Origin: an uncultured Chloroflexia bacterium
GTDB taxonomy: Bacteria > Chloroflexota > Limnocylindria > Limnocylindrales > CSP1-4
Direction: 5' to 3'
NCBI GenBank assembly: GCA_963833705.1
Contig: CAWHYQ010000007.1
Span: 3,982 to 67,981, forward strand
Length of the DNA: 64,000 nt
Both the position numbers and the translations under genes were made by a program. Below the pieces are notes generated by a model. It was given only the letters and a program-made list of their open reading frames with translations. It ran no database searches and had not been told where the DNA came from. Of this stretch, positions 3,641 through 63,918 are shown piece after piece (the stretch's first letter is position 1; the number at the start of each line of letters is the position of its first letter).

Positions 3641-4374
3641 CCATCGGCAACCGCCCACCCACCGTTCGTGCCGACGGGCGCGGCCCCAACGACCTGCGCC
3701 CGGTCACCTTCACACTCGGCGTCCAGAAATGGGCCGAGGGGTCGTGTCGGATCCGGGTCGGGGACACGGAGGTCCTGTGCGCGGCGACGATCGTCGATCG
3801 TGTCCCGCCCCACCTCCGCGGCAAAGGCACCGGCTGGGTGACGGCCGAGTACTCGATGCTGCCGCGGGCGACGGCCGAGCGGACCGACCGAGAATCGGTC
3901 AAGGGCAAGATCGGTGGGCGGACGCACGAGATCCAGCGGCTCATCGGGCGGTCATTGCGCGGTGTGGTCGACCTGGCCAAGCTCGGTGAGCGGACCATCA
4001 CCGTCGACTGCGACGTGCTCCAGGCAGATGGCGGCACCCGGACCGCGTCGATCACCGGCGGCTACGTGGCGCTCGCGGCGGCGCTCATCACCTACGGCAT
4101 GGAGCGACATCTGGTCGCCAAGGTGGCGGCCGTGTCGGTCGGGATCGTCAACGGCCTGCCGTATCTCGACCTCGACTACTCCGAGGACTCCCGCGCGGAT
4201 GTCGACTTCAACGTCGTCGGCACGGACGCCGGCGCATACGTCGAGTTGCAGGGGACGGCCGAGGGCATCCCCTTCGACCGTGCCGCGGCCAACGGCCTTC
4301 TCGACCTGGCCGATGGCGGCCTGGCGCGCCTGTTCGAGGCGCAGGCCGCCGTGCTCGCCACCGTCCGGCGGTGA
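3637..4374 (+). CDS. rph: Ribonuclease PH
   Basis: [47 protein letters not shown]. Confidence 0.98.
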
Positions 4375-12122: not shown

Positions 12123-12290
12123 TCCACATGCCAATCCGCTGGACGAGACGGCGACGAGACCGGGAGGCAAGGAGTGTGGACACCCGACCGGCCGTATGAT
12201 GCTTGCGACCTCGTCGGCGTCGTGAGCGATGCGGGCCAGGCCGAGCGTTCGGTCTCAGGAAGCGCGGGTCGTTCCTGAGTACGAAATCGC

Positions 12291-12333
12291 CGGGGAGTAG
12301 CGTAGTTGGCAACGCACGTGCTTTGGGAGTACG
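12291..12333 (+). repeat. att site: 5' half of tRNA-Pro(TGG), direct repeat of 17258-17300
   Basis: 39-bp exact match (12291-12329 = 17258-17296), extending to 42/43 through the anticodon arm. Confidence 0.93.
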
Positions 12334-13331
12334 TCCGGCGGGAGGCGGTCCTCAGCTCGCAGATCGAAGGGACACAGAGCACGTTGGACGACGTGCTGGC
12401 CTACGAGCTCGACGCCAATCGGAGCACAGCTGCCCGTCGACGTCGGCGAGGTGGTGAACCACATCGCTGCGATGAACTACGGCCTCCAGCGCCTCGAGAC
12501 CCTCCCGTTGTCCAATCGACTCATCAAGGAGATCCACGAGCGACTGATGCGGGACGTACGGGGTGCCGAACGGAGCCCGGGCGAGTTCCGGCGGACCCAG
12601 AACTGGATCGGGCCGAGCGGAGGCACCCTTCGTGACGCCGCGTTCGTGCCGCCGCCGGTTCACGAGATGGATGACCGCGATGGGGGATCTCGAGACGTTC
12701 CTTCACCAGACGGGATGGTCTACCCCGACTCGTGCATGCCGGCCTGGCGCACGCCCAATTCGAGACGATCCACCCGTTTCTGGACGGCAACGGGCGGGTC
12801 GGCCGGCTCCTGATCACCTTCCTGCTGGTGCACGGCGGAGTGCTGCATCGGCCGCTGCTTTACCTGAGTCACTTCCTGAAGAGGAACCGCAGCGAGTACT
12901 ACGATCGACTGATGGCCGTTCGGCAAGCTGGCGATTGGGAGAGCTGGCTCGGTTTCTTCCTGCGGGGCGTCGCCGAGACAGCAAGTGAGGCGACCAGCAC
13001 TGCTGGGGCGATCGTGGCTCTCCGTGACCTGCATCGACCGCTTGCCGCTGAGCTCGGCGCGAACGGTATCCGGCTCCTCGACCATCTCTTCACGCAGCCG
13101 CTCGTGAATGTGAACGCGGTCGGGTCGGTGTTGCAGGTCTCGTGGCCGACTGCGAACAAACTGGCGCAATCGTTCGCAGAACGCGGGATCCTCGACGAGG
13201 CCACGGGCTACCGGCGGAATCGCGTCTACCGCTACAGCCCGTACCTCGCGCTGTTCAGTGAAACAACGCCGACGGCAGATTCGACGGCCGCGCCGATGGG
13301 AACGGAGGCGGAACGGGCCGAAGGCACCTGA
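12306..13331 (+). CDS. Fic family protein, N-terminally truncated and fused to the tRNA fragment (frameshifted in assembly)
   Basis: YVRREAVLSSQIEGTQ (S/TxxxEG inhibitory motif), PGEFRRTQNWIG, HPFLDGNGRVGR, C-terminal HTH; spread over three frames. Confidence 0.85.
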
Positions 13332-13374
13332 CCGTGTGCTCCATTGCCGGCCGGGGGTGCGGGAACGCCGGCGA

Positions 13375-14055
13375 ATGGGGCCCCAAGGCGTAGACGTCAG
13401 CAAGGTCAGTAACAACAATTTCGCCTGGAAGCAAGGAGCTTGGGAGCGAGCCACGCCGGCATGGGCGAGAGACCTCGGAAAGGTCGATGCGAACGGCTGT
13501 CTCGTCGCGGTCACTCAATGGTGTTCGAAACCAGCATCGCTGAAAGACGTTGTCACGTTCACCGTAGTCGTCGGCGGCGCGACGGTTGTGATCATCCTCG
13601 CGGCGCCTGTGGTCATCGAAGGCGGGATGACCGTAGCCGCTATATACGTTGCCACCGGCGCGACAGGTGCGGCAGGCTTGGTAGCTCCAAGCCTAAATAA
13701 GGTCGGCGAGATAATCGTCGAGGGCGAAGGCGGGGCTGGCCTGCCGCGCCCAGCGTCGCCTAGCGAGCTGGTCGGGATGATGAACCGCCGCCCTGGGGTA
13801 ACCGCGGAGATCTCAGATAGCCCTGACCTTATCCGTTTGCTCGACTCCCGAAAGGCGCAGGGTCTAACCTTTATGGAACAAGGAGGCTTTAGTGTGTTTC
13901 TCCGCGCAGGTTCATCGCGCAGCGACGTCTTGCACGAGTGGTTGCATGTTGTCCGCTCTGGCCAAGGAATAGGCATGGGCGTAGGAGAGGAGGACTTGAT
14001 CGATGGATGGCTGGCTAGTCATTCCGAGCTTCTCAGGCTAGGGCATGGAGACTGA
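13375..14055 (+). CDS. Orphan polymorphic-toxin C-terminal module, putative HExxH metallopeptidase
   Basis: Hydrophobic Gly/Ala linker, then DVLHEWLH and downstream EE; lower GC; overlaps the next small ORF. Confidence 0.6.
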   Translation: MGPQGVDVSKVSNNNFAWKQGAWERATPAWARDLGKVDANGCLVAVTQWCSKPASLKDVVTFTVVVGGATVVIILAAPVVIEGGMTVAAIYVATGATGAAGLVAPSLNKVGEIIVEGEGGAGLPRPASPSELVGMMNRRPGVTAEISDSPDLIRLLDSRKAQGLTFMEQGGFSVFLRAGSSRSDVLHEWLHVVRSGQGIGMGVGEEDLIDGWLASHSELLRLGHGD

Positions 14056-14341
14056 TTTCTTGACGGTCTCAGCGGACCAGCTTGCCGCGCTGCCGAGCAT
14101 TCATCGCATCCTCGTTCCAGTTGATAGAGTCGCGTGGAAGCCTTCAAACGTAAGTCTTTCGATCGACGATTCGTCTTGGTTTCTTCGCATGGTCGGAGAG
14201 GCTTGGATTGGGCCGAATGTCTTCGTGGCTCTGGAAGCCCTCGGTGACGATCCGTCTGCAGTCGAGGAAATTGAAAAGATCCTCAGAACTCGGCCGAAGT
14301 CGACAGCTGTGGTTGAAGGCCTCGTACGGATAGAGGGCTGA
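14045..14341 (+). CDS. Putative immunity protein
   Basis: 98-aa acidic ORF overlapping the toxin stop. Confidence 0.55.
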   Translation: METDFLTVSADQLAALPSIHRILVPVDRVAWKPSNVSLSIDDSSWFLRMVGEAWIGPNVFVALEALGDDPSAVEEIEKILRTRPKSTAVVEGLVRIEG

Positions 14342-14455
14342 GCGGACCGACACGATCTCGGGCACCGACACGCTCTTCACCATGTAGCGCCTACGGTGAT
14401 CTGACCGAGAACGACAACACCGTGCAACATCTCACAATCTCGTACACAGAAACCC

Positions 14456-14484
14456 TTCCTTGCGGCCGACCGCTGGTCTAGCAT
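14456..14484 (+). promoter_or_regulatory. Sigma70-type promoter of the RNA/relaxase module, copy 1
   Basis: TTCCTT-17 bp-TAGCAT; copy 2 has TTCCAT-17 bp-TAGCAT with a diverged spacer. Confidence 0.65.
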
Positions 14485-14942
14485 CGAGGCTCGGCGGCTG
14501 ACGCCTCGGTCGGTCCGCCTGAAGGCCGTCTCGGTGGGCTGAGCAGCAGGCGCTGCGGTCCATCGTGTCGATCGCGTCAGGAGCAACGCTCCGGCGGTCG
14601 CTGACGGCATTCGGGTCGACGATCGAGACGTCCGCGTCGCGACTGCTCCGCTGGAGCGGTCCTGTTCGGTCGGGTCGTCCCAGGCGTGACGGCTCCCGTG
14701 ACGGACCGCTCAATCGGGCGGGAACGTGGCCAGTCCGTCGAAAAACCGGTACGCACAGTCCTTCTGTGAGGTCGCCCTCCGATGGTTCAACGGCAATTTG
14801 ATCAGCACCAGTCAGCCATCGCTGTCCTCGGCCCACGTCGGGCGGCAGGGATGGACTCTTCGATCGGGGTTTCGGGACCCCGGTCCCTGCCCGCCGTTTC
14901 GTGCCTGGGAAGGCGCGCTCCGGGCCGAGACCCTGCAGTCCC
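14485..14942 (+). ncRNA. Putative large structured RNA/leader upstream of the replication-relaxation gene, copy 1
   Basis: Strongly conserved with 46465-46922; many hairpins with G-U pairs on this strand; differences mostly in loops or compensatory. Confidence 0.6.
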
Positions 14943-15842
14943 ATGATCGGTGCGTTCACCGCCGCACCCGCACCACCTCGCCGGGTCATCGTCGATCCAG
15001 GCTTCCTGTCGTACCGCGATCGAGCTGCGCTGCGCATCCTCTACCGCGCCGACGTCGCCACTACAGCCCAACTCACGACGCTCGTGTACAACCGCCGTCA
15101 AACGGCACAGGAACGTCTCAGCGCTCTCTACCGCGCGGGCTATCTCGAACGGGCGATCCTGCCACCATCCTCCCGCGGTGGTGCTCCTCATGCCTTCCGC
15201 GTCTCCCCCCGCGGACGTCATCGTCTCGGCTACGACCCGCTCACCCGATCACGGGCCGGTACCCAGCTCCGCCACAGCCTCAACGGCGTCGAGACCGTCT
15301 GCGCGCTCGTGAACGCTTCCCGCGGCGACGGCAGCAGCGAGCCGCTCGTCCAGGCCTGGCTGACGGAGGACATGGCCCACGACCTGCTCCCGAAGACGTA
15401 TCCCGATGGCGTCGTCGTCCTCCAGGCATCGACAGGCTCCGGTGTCCTCTGTCTCGAGATCGACCAGAACACCGAGCGCGGTCCGGTCATCCGCGACAAG
15501 CTCGGACGCTACGAGACGGCGATCCGCTCCAAGGCCGGCTGGCACCTCCTGTTCGTCGTCCCGTCGTCCGAACGGGCCGGCTCGCTGGCCGGGACCGGCC
15601 GTCAGAAGGACGGCTACGCGGGGCTCGCGGGCTACGCCTGGGCGCTCGTCCTGCCCGAGCTGCGGACCCGCGGCCTCGATGCCGGTGTCGTCGCGCTCAA
15701 CCCGAACGTGGCTCGGACGACGCTCGGTGCGCTGCTGGTCGACTCGACGCCGCGGCGCTGCCCGACGCCGGTCGGCACCGACGCCTGGCTCCAGGTCCTG
15801 GGTCTCGGTGGCGACGAGGACTTCACCGAGGCGCTTCGGTGA
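14943..15842 (+). CDS. Replication-relaxation family protein (wHTH + PD-(D/E)XK fold; MOB_C-like), copy 1
   Basis: RDRAALRILY..ATTAQL (wHTH), LRHSL, YPDG...LEIDQNTE...KLGRY. Alternative start at ATG 14782 if one indel is an error. Confidence 0.85.
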   Translation: MIGAFTAAPAPPRRVIVDPGFLSYRDRAALRILYRADVATTAQLTTLVYNRRQTAQERLSALYRAGYLERAILPPSSRGGAPHAFRVSPRGRHRLGYDPLTRSRAGTQLRHSLNGVETVCALVNASRGDGSSEPLVQAWLTEDMAHDLLPKTYPDGVVVLQASTGSGVLCLEIDQNTERGPVIRDKLGRYETAIRSKAGWHLLFVVPSSERAGSLAGTGRQKDGYAGLAGYAWALVLPELRTRGLDAGVVALNPNVARTTLGALLVDSTPRRCPTPVGTDAWLQVLGLGGDEDFTEALR

Positions 15843-15916
15843 GAGAGCGCAACCAGCGGGCCGCGTGGGGTCGAATTGGTGGCTTGACGACGTCCGCCCG
15901 ATTGGGTGGTGTAGCG

Positions 15917-16156
15917 ATGACCGCCCCGGCGCGACGCGGCTTTCGGCAGCGCTTCGAGCGCGAGGTCGACCCTGAAGGCAGGCTAAGCCCAGTCGAGCGG
16001 TCCAAGCGCGCGAGTCTCCTGATGCGCGCTCACATGTTGCGGCTGGCCAAGTCCAGTTCGGAGATGCGGGCCGCGTCGAAGCGGCTCACATCTGGCGATC
16101 CCGCGTCGCGATCGAATTCGCGCCGGGCTGCGTCGCCACGCTCGAGACCGCGCTGA
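15917..16156 (+). CDS. Small basic hypothetical protein of the integrative element
   Basis: MTAPARRGFRQRFEREVDPEGRLSPVERSKRA...AHMLRLA; lies between relaxase and integrase. Confidence 0.6.
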   Translation: MTAPARRGFRQRFEREVDPEGRLSPVERSKRASLLMRAHMLRLAKSSSEMRAASKRLTSGDPASRSNSRRAASPRSRPR

Positions 16157-16186
16157 GGGTTGCGAATCGGCCCAGGCGTGGCGGCT

Positions 16187-17177
16187 CTACCGGTCGCCGG
16201 CCAGGCGATCGACCGGACTGAGCGCGCGTGCGGCCGCGATCGCCCGCTCCGCCCGCGTCGACGCCGCATAGCGGGCGACCATGTCGCGGCTTCGCCAGCC
16301 GACCACGGCCATGAGGTCGGTCTCCTGCATCCCGCCGGCAAGCATCATGTGGGCGTAGGCGTGGCGGAACATGTGCGGGTGGACGCGGCCCGGAATGCCG
16401 GCCTCAAGCCCGCGATCGCGGACGAGTTCGGCGAGTCCGGACTCGGTCAGGCGGCCCCTTCTGGCCGATCCAAAGGACCGCGAGGTCGCCGCCCGGGTGT
16501 TTCGCCCGGGCCCGGAGATAGCGATCGACGCGCGAATGGTCTGGGCGCCGAGCGGCACGAGTCGGATCCGGCTGCCCTTGCCGGTCGACACGCAGCGAGC
16601 CCCTGCTCGAGATCGACGTCAGCGACGCCGAGGCCGAGGACCTCGCCGCGTCGGGCTCCGGTGTCCATGAAGACGCGAAGGATCGGCCTCGTCGCGCCGA
16701 CCGGCGAAGGTCTTGTCGCGCTCGCAGGCGGCGAGGAGCGCCCGAAGCTCCGCCTCGCGTAGGACCGGCGGCGGTTCCTCCGGCAGGCGCGGCGGCTTCA
16801 TCCGCTCCATCGGGTTGTCGCGGATCTCGCCTTCCTCGACGGAGCCAGCGGAAGAACGGCATGACAGCCGCGGTAGCGGTTGTGGGCCGTGGCCGGCTTC
16901 CAGCGGTCGAGGATGTCGGTGATGAAGGCCTCGACGTGCTCGCGCGTGATGGCGGTCGGCGTGGTCGGCATGCCCTGGCGCTCGAGGAATCCGGTCGAGC
17001 TGTCGCGACGGCGGTGGAGTACGTCGAGATCGTCGCCGGACTGATCCGCTGCGCACGAAGATGCCGGCGCCAACTCTCGAGCAGACCGTCGAGCTCAGTC
17101 GGGGCCGTAGAATGCGCGGTGTCGGTTAGCGCTGCGTGCGTCGTTCGAGCTCCTGCTGGGAGTCCTGACAGGCGCAC
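16187..17177 (-). CDS. Tyrosine recombinase/integrase (frameshifted)
   Basis: DTGARRGEVLGL (R), GKGSRIR (K), HPHMFRHAYAH (HxxR), VGWRSRDMVARY (W, Y); N-terminal SAM-like domain. Confidence 0.92.
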
Positions 17178-17257
17178 AGCATATGCGATATGAGCGGTGA
17201 AGGTCCAGTGATTACGGCCGAATGTCGAGTATCATGCGATATCCACGCTCAAACGGA

Positions 17258-17333
17258 CGGGGAGTAGCGTAGTTGGCAACGCACGTGCTTTGGGAGCACG
17301 AGATCGCGGGTTCGAGTCCCGCCTCCCCGACCA
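17258..17333 (+). tRNA. tRNA-Pro (TGG)
   Basis: Cloverleaf: CGGGGAG/CTCCCCG acceptor stem, CGTGC-TT TGG GA-GCACG, GGTTCGAGTCC, encoded CCA; TATCAT at 17230. Confidence 0.98.
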
Positions 17334-43710: not shown

Positions 43711-45222
<1,512 letters not shown>

Positions 45223-45563: not shown

Positions 45564-46464
45564 TCACCGAAGGGCCTCGGTGAAGTCCTCGTGGCCACCG
45601 AGCCCCAGGACCTGGAGCCAGACGTCGGTGCCGACCGGTGTCGGGCAGCGCCGTGGCGTCGAATTCGACGAGCATTGCACCGAGCGTCGTCCGCGGCACG
45701 TTCGGGTTGAGGGCGACGACGGTCGCGTCGAGGCCGCGGGTCCGGAGCTCGGGCAAGACGAGGGCCCAGGCGTAGCCAGCGAGTCCCGGGTAGCCGCCCT
45801 TCTGACGGCCGATGCCGGCGAGGGAGCCGGCCCGTTCGGCCGACGGGACGACGAACAGGAGATGCCACCCGGGCTTGGAGCGGATGGCGGTCTCGTATCG
45901 GCCGAGCTTGTCGCGGATCACCGGACCGCGCTCGGTGTTCTGGTCGATCTCGAGACACAGGACCGCAGAGCCCGACGCTGCCTGGAGGACGACGACGGCA
46001 TCGGGGTAGGTCTTGGGCAGCAGGTCGTGGGCCATGTCCTCCGTCAACCAGGCCTGGACGAGCGGCTCGCTGCTGCCCTCGCCGCGAGAAGCGGTCACGA
46101 GCGCGCAGACCGTCTCGACGCCGTTGAGGCTGTGGCGGAGCTGGGTGCCGGCACGTGAGCGAGTGAGCGGGAGGTAGCCGAGACGACGACGTCCGCGGGG
46201 AGAGACACGAAACGCGTAGGGAGCACCACCGCGGCTGGACGGTGGCAGGATCGCACGTTCGAGATAGCCCGCGCGATAGAGCGCGCTGAGACGTTCCTGC
46301 GCCGTTTGTCGGCGGGTGTGGACGAGCGTGGTGAGTTGAGAGGTTGTCGCGACATCGGCGCGATAGAGGATGCGGAGCGCAGCTCGATCGCGGTAGGAGA
46401 GGAAGCCTGGATCGACGATGACCCGGCGAGGTGGTGCGGGTGCCGCGGTGAACGCACCGATCAT
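45564..46464 (-). CDS. Replication-relaxation family protein, copy 2 (1-nt insertion near 45660)
   Basis: Near-identical protein to 14943-15842; 901 vs 900 nt; frame is open upstream to ATG 46626. Confidence 0.85.
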
Positions 46465-46922
46465 GGGTCTGTAGGGTCTCAGCCCGGATTGTGCACAGCC
46501 ACGCACGAAACGGGGGGCAGGGACCGGGGTCCCGAAACCCCGCTCGGATACCCCATCCCTGCCACCTGTGGGCGGCCGAGCGACTGGCCGGCTGACTTGT
46601 CGCTGATCGAGTTGCCGTTGAACCATCGGAGGGCGACCTCATAGAAGGACTGTGCGTACCGAGTTTTCGACGGACTGGCCACGTTCCTGCCCGCTGGAGC
46701 GGGTCCCATCACGGGAGCCGTCACGCCTGGGACGACCCGACCGAACAGGACCGCTCGCGGAGCAGTCGCGACGCGGACGTCTCGATCGTCGACCCGAATG
46801 CCGTCAGCGACCGCCGGAGCGTTGCTCTGACGCGATCGACACGGCGGACCGCAGCGCCAGCTGCTCAGCCCACCGAGACAGTATTCAGGCGGACCGACCG
46901 AGGCGTCAGCCGCCGAGCCTCG
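46465..46922 (-). ncRNA. Putative large structured RNA/leader, copy 2
   Basis: Reverse-complement homolog of 14485-14942 with stems retained. Confidence 0.6.
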
Positions 46923-46951
46923 ATGCTAGGACGCTCGCGGGCCGAATGGAA
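46923..46951 (-). promoter_or_regulatory. Promoter of the RNA/relaxase module, copy 2
   Basis: TTCCAT-17 bp-TAGCAT on the minus strand. Confidence 0.65.
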
Positions 46952-47205
46952 GGGCTTCTGTGTACGAGATTGTGTGCCGCTCATTTCCGGACGAGTCGGG
47001 AGGGTGGGCGGAAGCCCTCGGGACTCGCTGGATTCCCGACGACCCGGTTGAGGCCCCGCATTGTCGCGCCTAAGATCATTCGATCGTCCTTGGTGCGGAC
47101 TGGTGCGGTAGTCCCCAGTTGACGCGGCCGACACCCGGGCGGACGATGCTGGACGGCACGGGGGCGGGCACGCTATCCGGAAGGCGCGGGGGTCGAGGAG
47201 GGATC

Positions 47206-54611: not shown

Positions 54612-56113
54612 TCAAGTCCTCTCGCCCCGACCAAACTCACCGATCTGGCGTCCGAGCTCGAGCACCGCCGGTAGCGCGGCGTCGAGACCGAGGTCGATCG
54701 CGTCGGGCGTGAGCTCGTACTCCAGCCGCTCGAAGCCCAGCACGTCGAGCCTGGCGAAGATCGCCGTCACGAGCGCCTGTCGTCCTTCGGGTCCGAATCG
54801 GCCCAGAGCGACGGCAGCGAGCGCAGGTAGTCGACGATCTCGTGCGGCGTGAGCCGCGGTCTCGCAGTGGCTCCCGGGCGATCCGTTCCTCGGCGTCGAG
54901 CCGCGCCATCGTCGCCTGCCAGGCGGCCATGTCGCGGGTCTTGGCGAGCGCGCGTGCGGCGTCGTCGCGCTCCCGCTCGATGCGGGCGAGGGTGAGCTCG
55001 TCCGACCCGCGGCCGGTCGATCGCCGTAGAGCCGGACGACCTCGCTGATGGTCGCGTCATCGACGCGCGCCGATCTGGGCGAGGAGCGCGCCGACCGCGT
55101 CCTCGTACCACGCCTGCGGATAGCAGTGGCCCTTGATCCGGGTGTCGTGGCCTCGGCTCGCGCCGCGCGTCCGGACCAGCGGCTCGCCGCCAGGAACGCC
55201 TCGCACGTCGGCGCCGGATGGCGGTAGCGGCCGACGTCGCCGTAGAGGTACTCGCCGCAGCCGGCGCAGCGCAGGCGCAGGGCGTAGGCGCGCTTGACGA
55301 TGCGGCCGGGCGTCCGCGTCCGGCGTCGCTCGCGCATCGTCTGCACCGTCGACCAGAGCGCCGGGTCGACGATCGGCGCGATGCCCGCCGGCTCGCCGGT
55401 CCGCAGCCGCCCGGCGTAGATCGGGTTGGTCAGGACCTCGCCGACGTGGGTCTTGGCGAGGCCCGTCTGGGCCGCGACCTCCCAGTCCGTGCGAGCCGGT
55501 CGCCGCGAGCTCGTAGGCGCGGCCGACGATCGCCGCCTTCTCGTCGTCGACCCGCAGGATCGAGGGCTTGCCCTCGCGGATGAGGCCGAAGGGCATCCGG
55601 TTGCCACCGGGGACCCCGAGCCGTCGTCGCTTGGCGGCGTAGCCCTCGCTGACGCGCTTGGAGAGCTTGCGGCTGTACGCCTCGGCCTCGTGGGCCTCGC
55701 GGATGAACTGGTCCCAGTGGCCGGGGTCGACGCACAGGAGCCGCTCGTCGGCGAACAGGACGACGACGCCCGCCGGCATGGAGGTGGTCCTCGACCGCGA
55801 TGAGGGTCTGCTTGAGGTTGCGCAGGAAGCGGCTGACGTAGCCGACGACGAGGACGTCGAAGGCGCCCGCCGTGGCCGAGCCGATCATCGCCTCCCAGGC
55901 GGCGCGTCCGCCAGGCCGACGTCCAGCCCGACGAGGCCACCGACCACTCGAGGCCGGCGTCGAGCAGGCCGTAGCGGTCGATGGCGCGGTCCTGCTGCTC
56001 GCGCTGGGCGTCGGGCCGAAGTTGTCGCACTGGCCGGCGGTCGACTCGCGGAACCAGCGAGCGGCCCGCAGGCCCTCGATCGCCTCGATCGACGGTGGCA
56101 GCATCCGGGTCAT
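54612..56113 (-). CDS. Large serine recombinase B (frameshifted)
   Basis: RWFRESTAGQ, FDVLVVGYVSRFLRN, MPFGL, NPIYAG, CAGCG; ends GRGERT* across the att core. Confidence 0.9.
54617..54633 (+). repeat. att core (tRNA-Pro 3' end copy) between islands A and B
   Basis: Identical to 43771-43787; 21/22 match from 54612. Confidence 0.92.
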
Positions 56114-63901: not shown

Positions 63902-63918
63902 TCCTCTCGCCCCGACCA
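63902..63918 (+). repeat. att core (tRNA-Pro 3' end copy), right end of island B
   Basis: TCCTCTCGCCCCGACCA identical to 43771-43787. Confidence 0.9.

Follow-up and report, generated by a model that had tools for sequence, protein, structure and literature searches.

A large base-paired non-coding element ahead of a Replic_Relax gene in Chloroflexota genomic islands: a candidate regulatory mRNA leader

Introduction

In plasmid R1 and in the IncI1/IncB and IncI2 plasmids, Rep is made only when a short leader peptide, whose frame overlaps the rep start, is translated; stem-loops of the leader are the target of an antisense RNA or, in the case of IncI2, of an RNA-binding protein (PMC8053102). 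The relaxases of the MOB_C type correspond to the Pfam family PF13814 (Replic_Relax) and are placed in the PD-(D/E)XK superfamily in three accounts (PMC5357655; PMC3424549; PMC12857230). According to the same sources, MOB_C relaxases work without a covalent DNA intermediate (PMC12857230), and PF13814 relaxases adjoin integrases in streptococcal integrative mobilizable elements (IMEs; PMC5357655). Here, we describe a 1.4-kb module in which a PF13814 gene follows a large base-paired element. The module lies in a stretch of 64,000 nucleotides (nt) with a G+C content of 68% (positions 3,982 to 67,981 of contig CAWHYQ010000007.1, assembly GCA_963833705.1, from an uncultured Chloroflexia bacterium), which is called the window in the following.

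A first-pass annotation of the window had proposed a candidate new system, a conserved structured RNA travelling with a relaxase gene. The observation behind this proposal stands in substance: the part upstream of the gene is a large, conserved, base-paired, non-coding element of the sense strand, joined to the Replic_Relax gene and unknown to Rfam, with covariation in two domains. The reading as a new system is not supported. A regulatory leader of an mRNA, new but of known design, is the most likely identity of the element, rather than a new RNA–protein machine.

Architecture of the module

The module occurs twice in the window—as copy A at 14433–15842 on the + strand and as copy B at 46974–45564 on the − strand—and a search of the same genome for a third copy returned none. 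The two copies are 92% identical over aligned columns, their homology starting exactly at CACAATCTCGTACAC and stopping at the TGA of the gene, which confirms the two copies and the borders proposed before. From left to right, the module begins with an upstream box and a promoter-like motif, which are followed by about 290 nt of non-coding leader, a Shine–Dalgarno (SD) sequence with an upstream open reading frame (uORF) of 54 codons and the Replic_Relax gene, whose start overlaps the end of the uORF as ATGA. About 510 nt of the module lie upstream of the start of the coding sequence (CDS) at 14943, close to the 500 nt estimated before.

Between copy A and copy B, identity is about 98% in 14479–14700 and about 90% in the CDS. 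Copy B (45564–46974, − strand) carries both leader domains described below, D1 at 46768–46915 and D2 at 46676–46774, which match their covariance models with 149.7 bits (model R2) and 93.3 bits (model R1), followed by the start codons (ATG) of the uORF at 46626 and of the CDS at 46464. Its reading frames are decayed: a 1-nt indel joins the uORF to the CDS, and a second indel shifts the last ~40 codons off the family consensus, which the protein of copy A follows through its final residue. The leader of copy B is nearly identical to that of copy A despite this frame-shifted uORF–CDS junction and C-terminus.

Fold and covariation of the leader

The related loci provide 38 distinct leaders once duplicates are removed, with identities to copy A down to 54%, and helices were sought by covariation together with a separate fold of each homologue. 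Consensus folding by RNAalifold of the full 525-nt region and of mixed groups yielded unstable long-range pairs and was discarded; two domains, D1 and D2, were therefore modelled separately. D1 (14494–14635, + strand) is predicted to be Y-shaped, with a long closing stem and two arms, one tipped by a GCAGC/GCTGC hairpin and the other built of CGATCGC/GCGGTCG around GGAGC-AAC-GCTCC. D2 (14634–14732, + strand) is predicted as a long irregular hairpin closed by GTCGCG/CGTGGC, at whose tip GGTCGTC and GACGGCT enclose the nearly constant loop CCAGGCGT (14680–14687). Single-sequence folds return this long hairpin with its conserved tip in 32 of 36 homologues, on stems of differing sequence; among the exceptions, three fold otherwise and one bears another tip.

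The trend is already visible when all 38 sequences are aligned with MAFFT, without regard to structure. The first helix set has 81.7% of its cells paired in this alignment compared with 77.8% in shuffles, and 98 compensatory cells compared with 46.4, while slid controls reach 33–51% paired. For the domain-wise analysis, covariance models were built from 23 close sequences, and the divergent sequences were re-aligned to them. For D1 (model R2, alignment A8; 39 matches, 36 of them distinct), 92.6% of the cells are paired versus 82.2 ± 0.4% in shuffles, and 44 of 57 pairs have changed on both sides versus 21.1 ± 2.8; none of 500 shuffles attains any of the five measures, and slid controls stay at 30–50% paired with 12–18 compensatory pairs. 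For D2 (model R1, alignment A6; 37 matches, 34 distinct), the paired share is 85.2% versus 77.6%, 18 of 37 pairs are compensatory—a value attained by 13 of 500 shuffles—and 89 compensatory cells face 36.9 in shuffles (0/500). These D1 and D2 figures are generous, because the alignments are fitted to the models and are made of related sequences. They agree in direction with the MAFFT result and with the folds of single sequences. Covariation among homologues had been named beforehand as a check on the structured RNA, and it is found in both domains.

The individual helices differ largely from those first drawn from the two window copies. Only GCAGC/GCTGC holds as given, with 90.8% of its cells paired and three of five pairs compensatory. 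The stem GACTGCTCC/GGAGCGGTC has a paired share of only 53.9%, and CCGCTC/GGGCGG one of only 51.0%; the long hairpin takes the place of both. CGAGGC/GCCTCG, TCGGTCCGCC/GGTGGGCTGA and CGTGTCGATCG/CGATCGAGACG find other partners in the covarying model, and the GCAGGGA/TCCCTGC hairpin falls inside the uORF, a region for which no consensus RNA structure emerges across 35 homologues.

Strand preference and non-coding character

The proposed pairs contain 375 G-U cells versus 116 A-C cells—G-U thus accounting for about 15% (375/2415)—which bears out the earlier remark that G-U pairs favour the sense strand. Folded as RNA, the sense strand reaches −152.5 kcal/mol (z −2.16; 7 of 200 shuffles as stable) and the antisense strand −126.3 kcal/mol (z −0.17). 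With DNA parameters, the z-scores are −1.19 for the sense strand, where 30 of 200 shuffles fold as well, and +0.18 for the antisense strand.

Variability in the leader is 0.115/0.133/0.112 by codon position, with no three-base period, and its mean of 0.120 lies well under the third codon positions of the CDS, in which variability does follow a clear period of three (0.082/0.060/0.211). Indels of 1–2 nt are scattered through the leader among copies with intact genes. No frame of the + strand is open from end to end across the leader, and the open frame of the − strand shifts from sequence to sequence. A coding leader was rejected on the lack of a period of three and on these frame-breaking indels; hence, the ORF signature across the ~290-nt leader that the first-pass annotation had listed as counter-evidence is not found. 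Also discarded was a 201-codon minus-strand ORF (14432–15037), which has no Pfam match and whose frame is lost in homologues.

Rfam recognizes only two tRNAs in the whole window. For 14400–15000, searched against Rfam 15 with E-values up to 10, the best score is 19.7 bits compared with gathering scores of 42–100; the assessment of an RNA outside the known families hence holds for matches at the gathering score. In the alignment of homologues, the leader shows no variable guide-like segment.

Flanking signals and the upstream reading frame

The left homology edge is formed by the upstream box CACAATCTCGTACACAG (14433–14449, + strand), which includes GTACAC at 14442–14447. The homology of 21 loci starts at this box, and the flanks further upstream are unrelated. 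It is followed by a position-conserved promoter-like motif (14456–14484, + strand) consisting of TTCCTT, a 17-nt spacer and TAGCAT (14479–14484). The pattern TT[GC]NNN-N16-18-TANNNT ends 280–290 nt ahead of the SD in 28 of the 38 unique homologues, whereas elsewhere in the 620 nt taken per sequence it matches three times on the + strand and once on the − strand. The spacer between the −35-like and −10-like hexamers differs in sequence among homologues, which agrees with the earlier observation of kept hexamers around a diverging spacer. A strict sigma-70 scan reported no promoter. Judging by the position of the motif, a transcript would be expected to start near 14491.

The hexamer GTAC[AG]C recurs within the module: GTACAC (14442–14447) lies just 5′ of the −35 motif and GTACGC (14749–14754) 14 nt before the SD. 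Most groups keep both sites, and loci L071 and L072 carry two copies of the first. The pair may be due to chance or may mark an operator, and is a candidate contact point only.

The 3′ end of the leader passes into a conserved linker (14733–14781, + strand), which includes the A-rich stretch GGTACGCA (14748–14755) and GAGGTCGCC (14768–14776) with the SD core GAGG. GAGGTCGCC is invariant in the 38-sequence alignment, and 9–11 nt further on lies the start codon, which is ATG except for one group with TTG. Of 21 sequences examined, 19 yielded both the −10 motif and the uORF ATG, and in all 19 the two are 301–307 nt apart. The uORF itself (14782–14946, + strand, 54 codons) ends in a TGA that overlaps the CDS start as ATGA. 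The first-pass annotation had cautioned that the last 160 nt ahead of the gene could be coding, and rightly so: the ATG at 14782 opens this conserved frame and leaves a leader of about 290 nt. A frame of 53–57 codons with a 4-nt ATGA/GTGA overlap is present at 17 of 21 loci and in 30 of 38 unique homologues, the group with the TTG start included; in the other 8 of 38, the uORF is fused in frame, truncated or interrupted.

The uORF peptide is poorly conserved, and variability by codon position (0.179/0.186/0.199) shows no period of three. What the uORF conserves appears to be translation up to the CDS start rather than its peptide. Within it, TCCCTGC (14884–14890) and CGTGC (14900–14904) show no nucleotide change across 20 homologues and are recognizable at 47% protein identity. 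Together they may represent a sequence-level DNA site at which the Replic_Relax protein nicks or binds. As candidate motifs of an origin of transfer, the two strings and the upstream box (14433–14449) are conserved sequences and no more.

The Replic_Relax protein

The gene downstream (14943–15842, + strand, 299 codons) was correctly assigned to Replic_Relax before: it matches PF13814 with an E-value of 4.3e-16 and 60 bits, compared with a cut-off of 25.3, residues 30–198 covering profile positions 1–180 of 191. NCBIfam holds no model for this protein, and a sequence search of the PDB with it returned nothing relevant. Its start alternates between ATG and GTG across homologues, and the protein family bears an invariant string YPD...LCLEID...TE...IRDK. 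The AlphaFold model (predicted local distance difference test score, pLDDT, 78.6; predicted template-modelling score, pTM, 0.82) is helical in its N-terminal part and alpha/beta in its C-terminal part. In a Foldseek search of the PDB, the best matches are the type IIS enzymes PaqCI and FokI (E 3e-3 to 1.7e-2) and MarR-type winged helices (E ~2e-2), none of them reaching E 1e-3.

Distribution and variants

Searched against 400 other genomes of the same family, the 513-nt upstream part is found in 15 genomes at E <1e-25, several of which carry two copies; the remaining 38 of the 53 matching genomes show short matches only (E 5e-19 to 1e-3). A protein-alignment scan of one genome per prokaryote species gave 46 loci at 47–93% protein identity, all within this Chloroflexota group and mostly in metagenome-assembled genomes of 'Candidatus Limnocylindrales/Limnocylindria'. 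In a class-level sample, the D1 model found a match in one of 44 further genomes of the same family and in none of 106 that represent four other families. The breadth of the module is thus modest, as it is limited to one family in the genomes searched.

Some loci depart from the common layout. L052 (2700–3000) bears the box, the promoter-like motif and an intact-looking gene of 298 codons, and is without D1, D2 and the uORF start. In L021, the leader is fused to a different small gene, joined directly at the leader's start codon. Apparent orphan leaders are explained otherwise: L018 and L019 are remnants, and L020 and L073 are copies split by the same inserted element. In the latter two, the same lower-GC sequence end appears in opposite orientations—after the uORF start in L020 and before the second half of the uORF in L073—and interrupts the uORF, which looks like the insertion of a mobile element into the module.

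A small basic ORF (about 80 codons; motif similar to RF.REVDP.G.L....ER) lies 3′ of copy A at 15917–16156 of the window. In the most distant homologues (L077 and L078), it is found upstream of the Replic_Relax gene, and in L021 on the leader; it has no Pfam or NCBIfam match.

Host islands

Copy A resides in a 5-kb island (12284–17300) flanked by a 50-nt direct repeat (12284–12333 and 17251–17300, 92% identical), which corresponds to the 5′ half of tRNA-Pro(TGG). Besides the module, the cargo comprises a Fic-domain fragment, two ORFs without a family match and remnants of a tyrosine integrase in three frames. Copy B adjoins tRNA-Pro(CGG) and is followed on its 3′ side by a serine-recombinase homologue (72% identity), whose frame changes near its end; the relative in L036 matches the Resolvase family. 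The islands thus carry unrelated integrases, as had been stated—a fragmented tyrosine integrase at copy A and a serine-recombinase homologue at copy B. The last 17 bases of tRNA-Pro(CGG), TCCTCTCGCCCCGACCA (43771–43787), recur exactly at 54617–54633 and 63902–63918 downstream. These repeats suggest two tandem integrated elements of ~10.8 and ~9.3 kb, the first of which would hold copy B and the serine-recombinase homologue. At 10 loci whose downstream neighbours were examined, six integrases or resolvases and three AbiEii toxins were found. From these surroundings, the host of the module is read as a small integrative mobilizable element.

Interpretation and rival explanations

The order of promoter-like motif, folded leader, SD, uORF, ATGA overlap and gene matches that of the rep leaders of R1, IncI1/IncB and IncI2, and the bracketing of the leader by a promoter-like motif on one side and an SD with a coupled uORF on the other gives it the anatomy of a regulatory mRNA leader. 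For this reason, we favour, at a probability of about 0.5, a cis-acting mRNA leader that governs the uORF-coupled translation of a relaxase/Rep gene. In such a mechanism, a single mRNA of small elements integrated at tRNA-Pro genes would comprise the ~290-nt 5′ leader, the 54-codon uORF and the Replic_Relax gene. Only ribosomes that have translated the uORF would arrive at the relaxase start, with which the uORF stop overlaps (ATGA), and the folded leader would set the frequency of uORF initiation. A factor—an RNA, perhaps, or a protein either of the host or of the element itself, namely its putative winged-helix protein—might bind a conserved single-stranded feature of the leader such as the tip loop of D2, which is a candidate contact point only. 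The outcome would be a tight control of the nuclease responsible for nicking or replicating the element once it is excised. Transcription, coupling and regulator are all steps that we infer.

Several observations weigh against this reading. Covariation between leader and SD was not found. Occlusion of the SD by the 5′ end of the leader was considered and dropped, as the alignment shows this pairing to fail in divergent groups. A pseudoknot between GGCG of the D2 loop and CGCC after the SD would be possible in the window copy and likewise fails in divergent groups; in two of these, the loop reads UGCG while the SD-side sequence is unchanged. The check for an antisense promoter—by a simple −35/−10 pattern only—gave a single − strand match across the 38 sequences (620 nt each), and the scan for terminator-like sites found none. 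Model-leaning alignments and the kinship of the sequences both inflate the shuffle tests. Locus L052 does without the leader, so that the latter is dispensable in at least one copy, or the L052 copy is dead. As for transcripts, a soil metatranscriptome with 6% of the sampled words gave a 216-nt contig over ~14421–14636 and a 34-nt piece near 15895–15928, the remainder of the searched stretch having no cover. The contig, the only record from an RNA library, has a low depth of 2.6 and also covers DNA upstream of the predicted promoter; it carries no strand information, could stem from DNA carry-over or read-through, and weighs neither way.

Since covariation is blind to the difference between RNA and single-stranded DNA (ssDNA), the fold might instead act as DNA, as part of an origin of transfer (oriT) or as a single-strand (lagging-strand) origin, although we consider this unlikely. 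As a rule, an oriT is found next to the gene of its relaxase. A relaxase nick nearby would lead to the displacement or transfer of one strand, and the fold would arise in that strand, a course of events that we rate as equally unlikely. The protein belongs to a relaxase and replication family (PF13814; PMC12857230, PMC3424549), and the persistence of TCCCTGC and CGTGC just 5′ of the CDS at 47% protein identity suggests a DNA site nearby. What speaks for RNA is the share of wobbles, which are weak in DNA, the DNA-parameter z-score of only −1.19 on the + strand and the exact framing of the fold by promoter-like motif and SD. A template-strand promoter of the Frpo type would need a fold on the − strand, which is without signal. 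That the region is functionless—GC-rich DNA folding readily and conserved through recent kinship or homogenization by recombination—is hardly credible. The higher identity of the two window copies in 14479–14700 than in the CDS could reflect gene conversion, and shuffle tests overstate the support for related sequences; yet the same helices recur, built of different sequences, in homologues at only 54–60% leader identity, the compensatory pairs of D1 (44/57) far outnumber those of its slid controls, and the distance from the −10 motif to the uORF ATG stays fixed at 301–307 nt.

RNA and gene move as one unit with sharp borders, and the leader is overall as conserved as the CDS and more so than its third codon positions (0.120 vs 0.211). 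Along with some 250 nt of paired domains, which is large for a plain translational operator, this might point to a functional RNA partner of the protein—a scaffold, a guide or a licence for nicking—or to an RNA that primes the replication of the element after its excision. The absence of a covalent intermediate in MOB_C relaxases also leaves their mode of DNA engagement an open question (PMC12857230). Nevertheless, such a partner, of which the ribonucleoprotein of omega-RNA-like arrangement or primer RNA suggested in the first-pass annotation is a version, appears improbable to us. The RNA is bracketed like an mRNA leader with the SD and uORF directly 3′ of it; it has neither a variable guide-like segment nor a terminator that would free a discrete RNA; L052 lacks it altogether; L021 bears it on a different small gene, as a portable regulatory leader would behave; and the PF13814 protein is unlike the RNA-guided transposon nucleases of the RuvC/TnpB kind. 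More specifically, the leader RNA might bind the element's putative winged-helix/PD-(D/E)XK protein and, acting in cis or once processed, thereby license DNA nicking or direct it to its target, which we hold to be more improbable still. Were it true, this would be the first RNA-dependent relaxase/Rep of the MOB_C type and might help explain how MOB_C relaxases handle DNA without a covalent intermediate.

If the regulatory mRNA leader is the right reading, an undescribed and well-covarying RNA family with about 250 nt of paired domains would be added from an uncultivated soil lineage. In the available parts of the literature found, there is no published account of this RNA, nor of a leader or uORF for PF13814 genes; on that basis, it would be the first reported uORF-coupled structured leader of a MOB_C/Replic_Relax gene and of an integrated mobilizable element. 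Plasmid-style translational control of DNA-processing enzymes would then reach into small genomic islands of Chloroflexota. The proposed helices and the conserved loop offer a concrete target for experiments.

Comparison with known systems

With the omega-RNAs of IscB/TnpB (HEARO and relatives), the module shares a large structured RNA beside a nuclease gene in a mobile element. It differs in that its protein belongs to PF13814 and not to RuvC/TnpB, that its RNA has no Rfam match and no guide segment at the element end, and that this RNA lies between a promoter-like motif and an SD with uORF. The single-strand origins of plasmids (sso/sti) and ssDNA promoters are non-coding, orientation-specific and heavily paired stretches of a few hundred bases beside rep or mob genes. 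The module has these features as well and departs from them by its many wobbles, its RNA-like strand statistics and its mRNA context.

On the protein level, the profile match places the module alongside MOB_C/PF13814 relaxases such as TraX of pAD1 and MobC of CloDF13. In the structure model, the N-terminal part may be winged-helix-like and the C-terminal part may resemble restriction endonucleases, at Foldseek E-values of 3e-3 or weaker. As in class 8 of the streptococcal IMEs, the gene adjoins an integrase in a compact element (PMC5357655). For known MOB_C relaxases, the accessible portions of the literature found mention neither a structured leader nor a uORF. The lineage differs too, being Chloroflexota here instead of Bacillota or Proteobacteria.

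From the R1/IncI-type plasmids, the module differs by a longer leader with two large domains, for which the simple −35/−10 pattern gave no antisense promoter and the alignment no kept pseudoknot of the IncI/IncB kind, and by a uORF of 53–57 codons compared with 19–29 in these plasmids. Its downstream gene belongs to an integrated Chloroflexota element and encodes a Replic_Relax protein, putatively of the PD-(D/E)XK type, and the leaders have no sequence relation to each other. What it has in common with CopA/CopT-tap-repA of R1, repY-repZ of IncI1/IncB and repR-repA with PcnR of IncI2 (PMC8053102) is the design itself: a structured leader and a short frame that overlaps the start of the gene.

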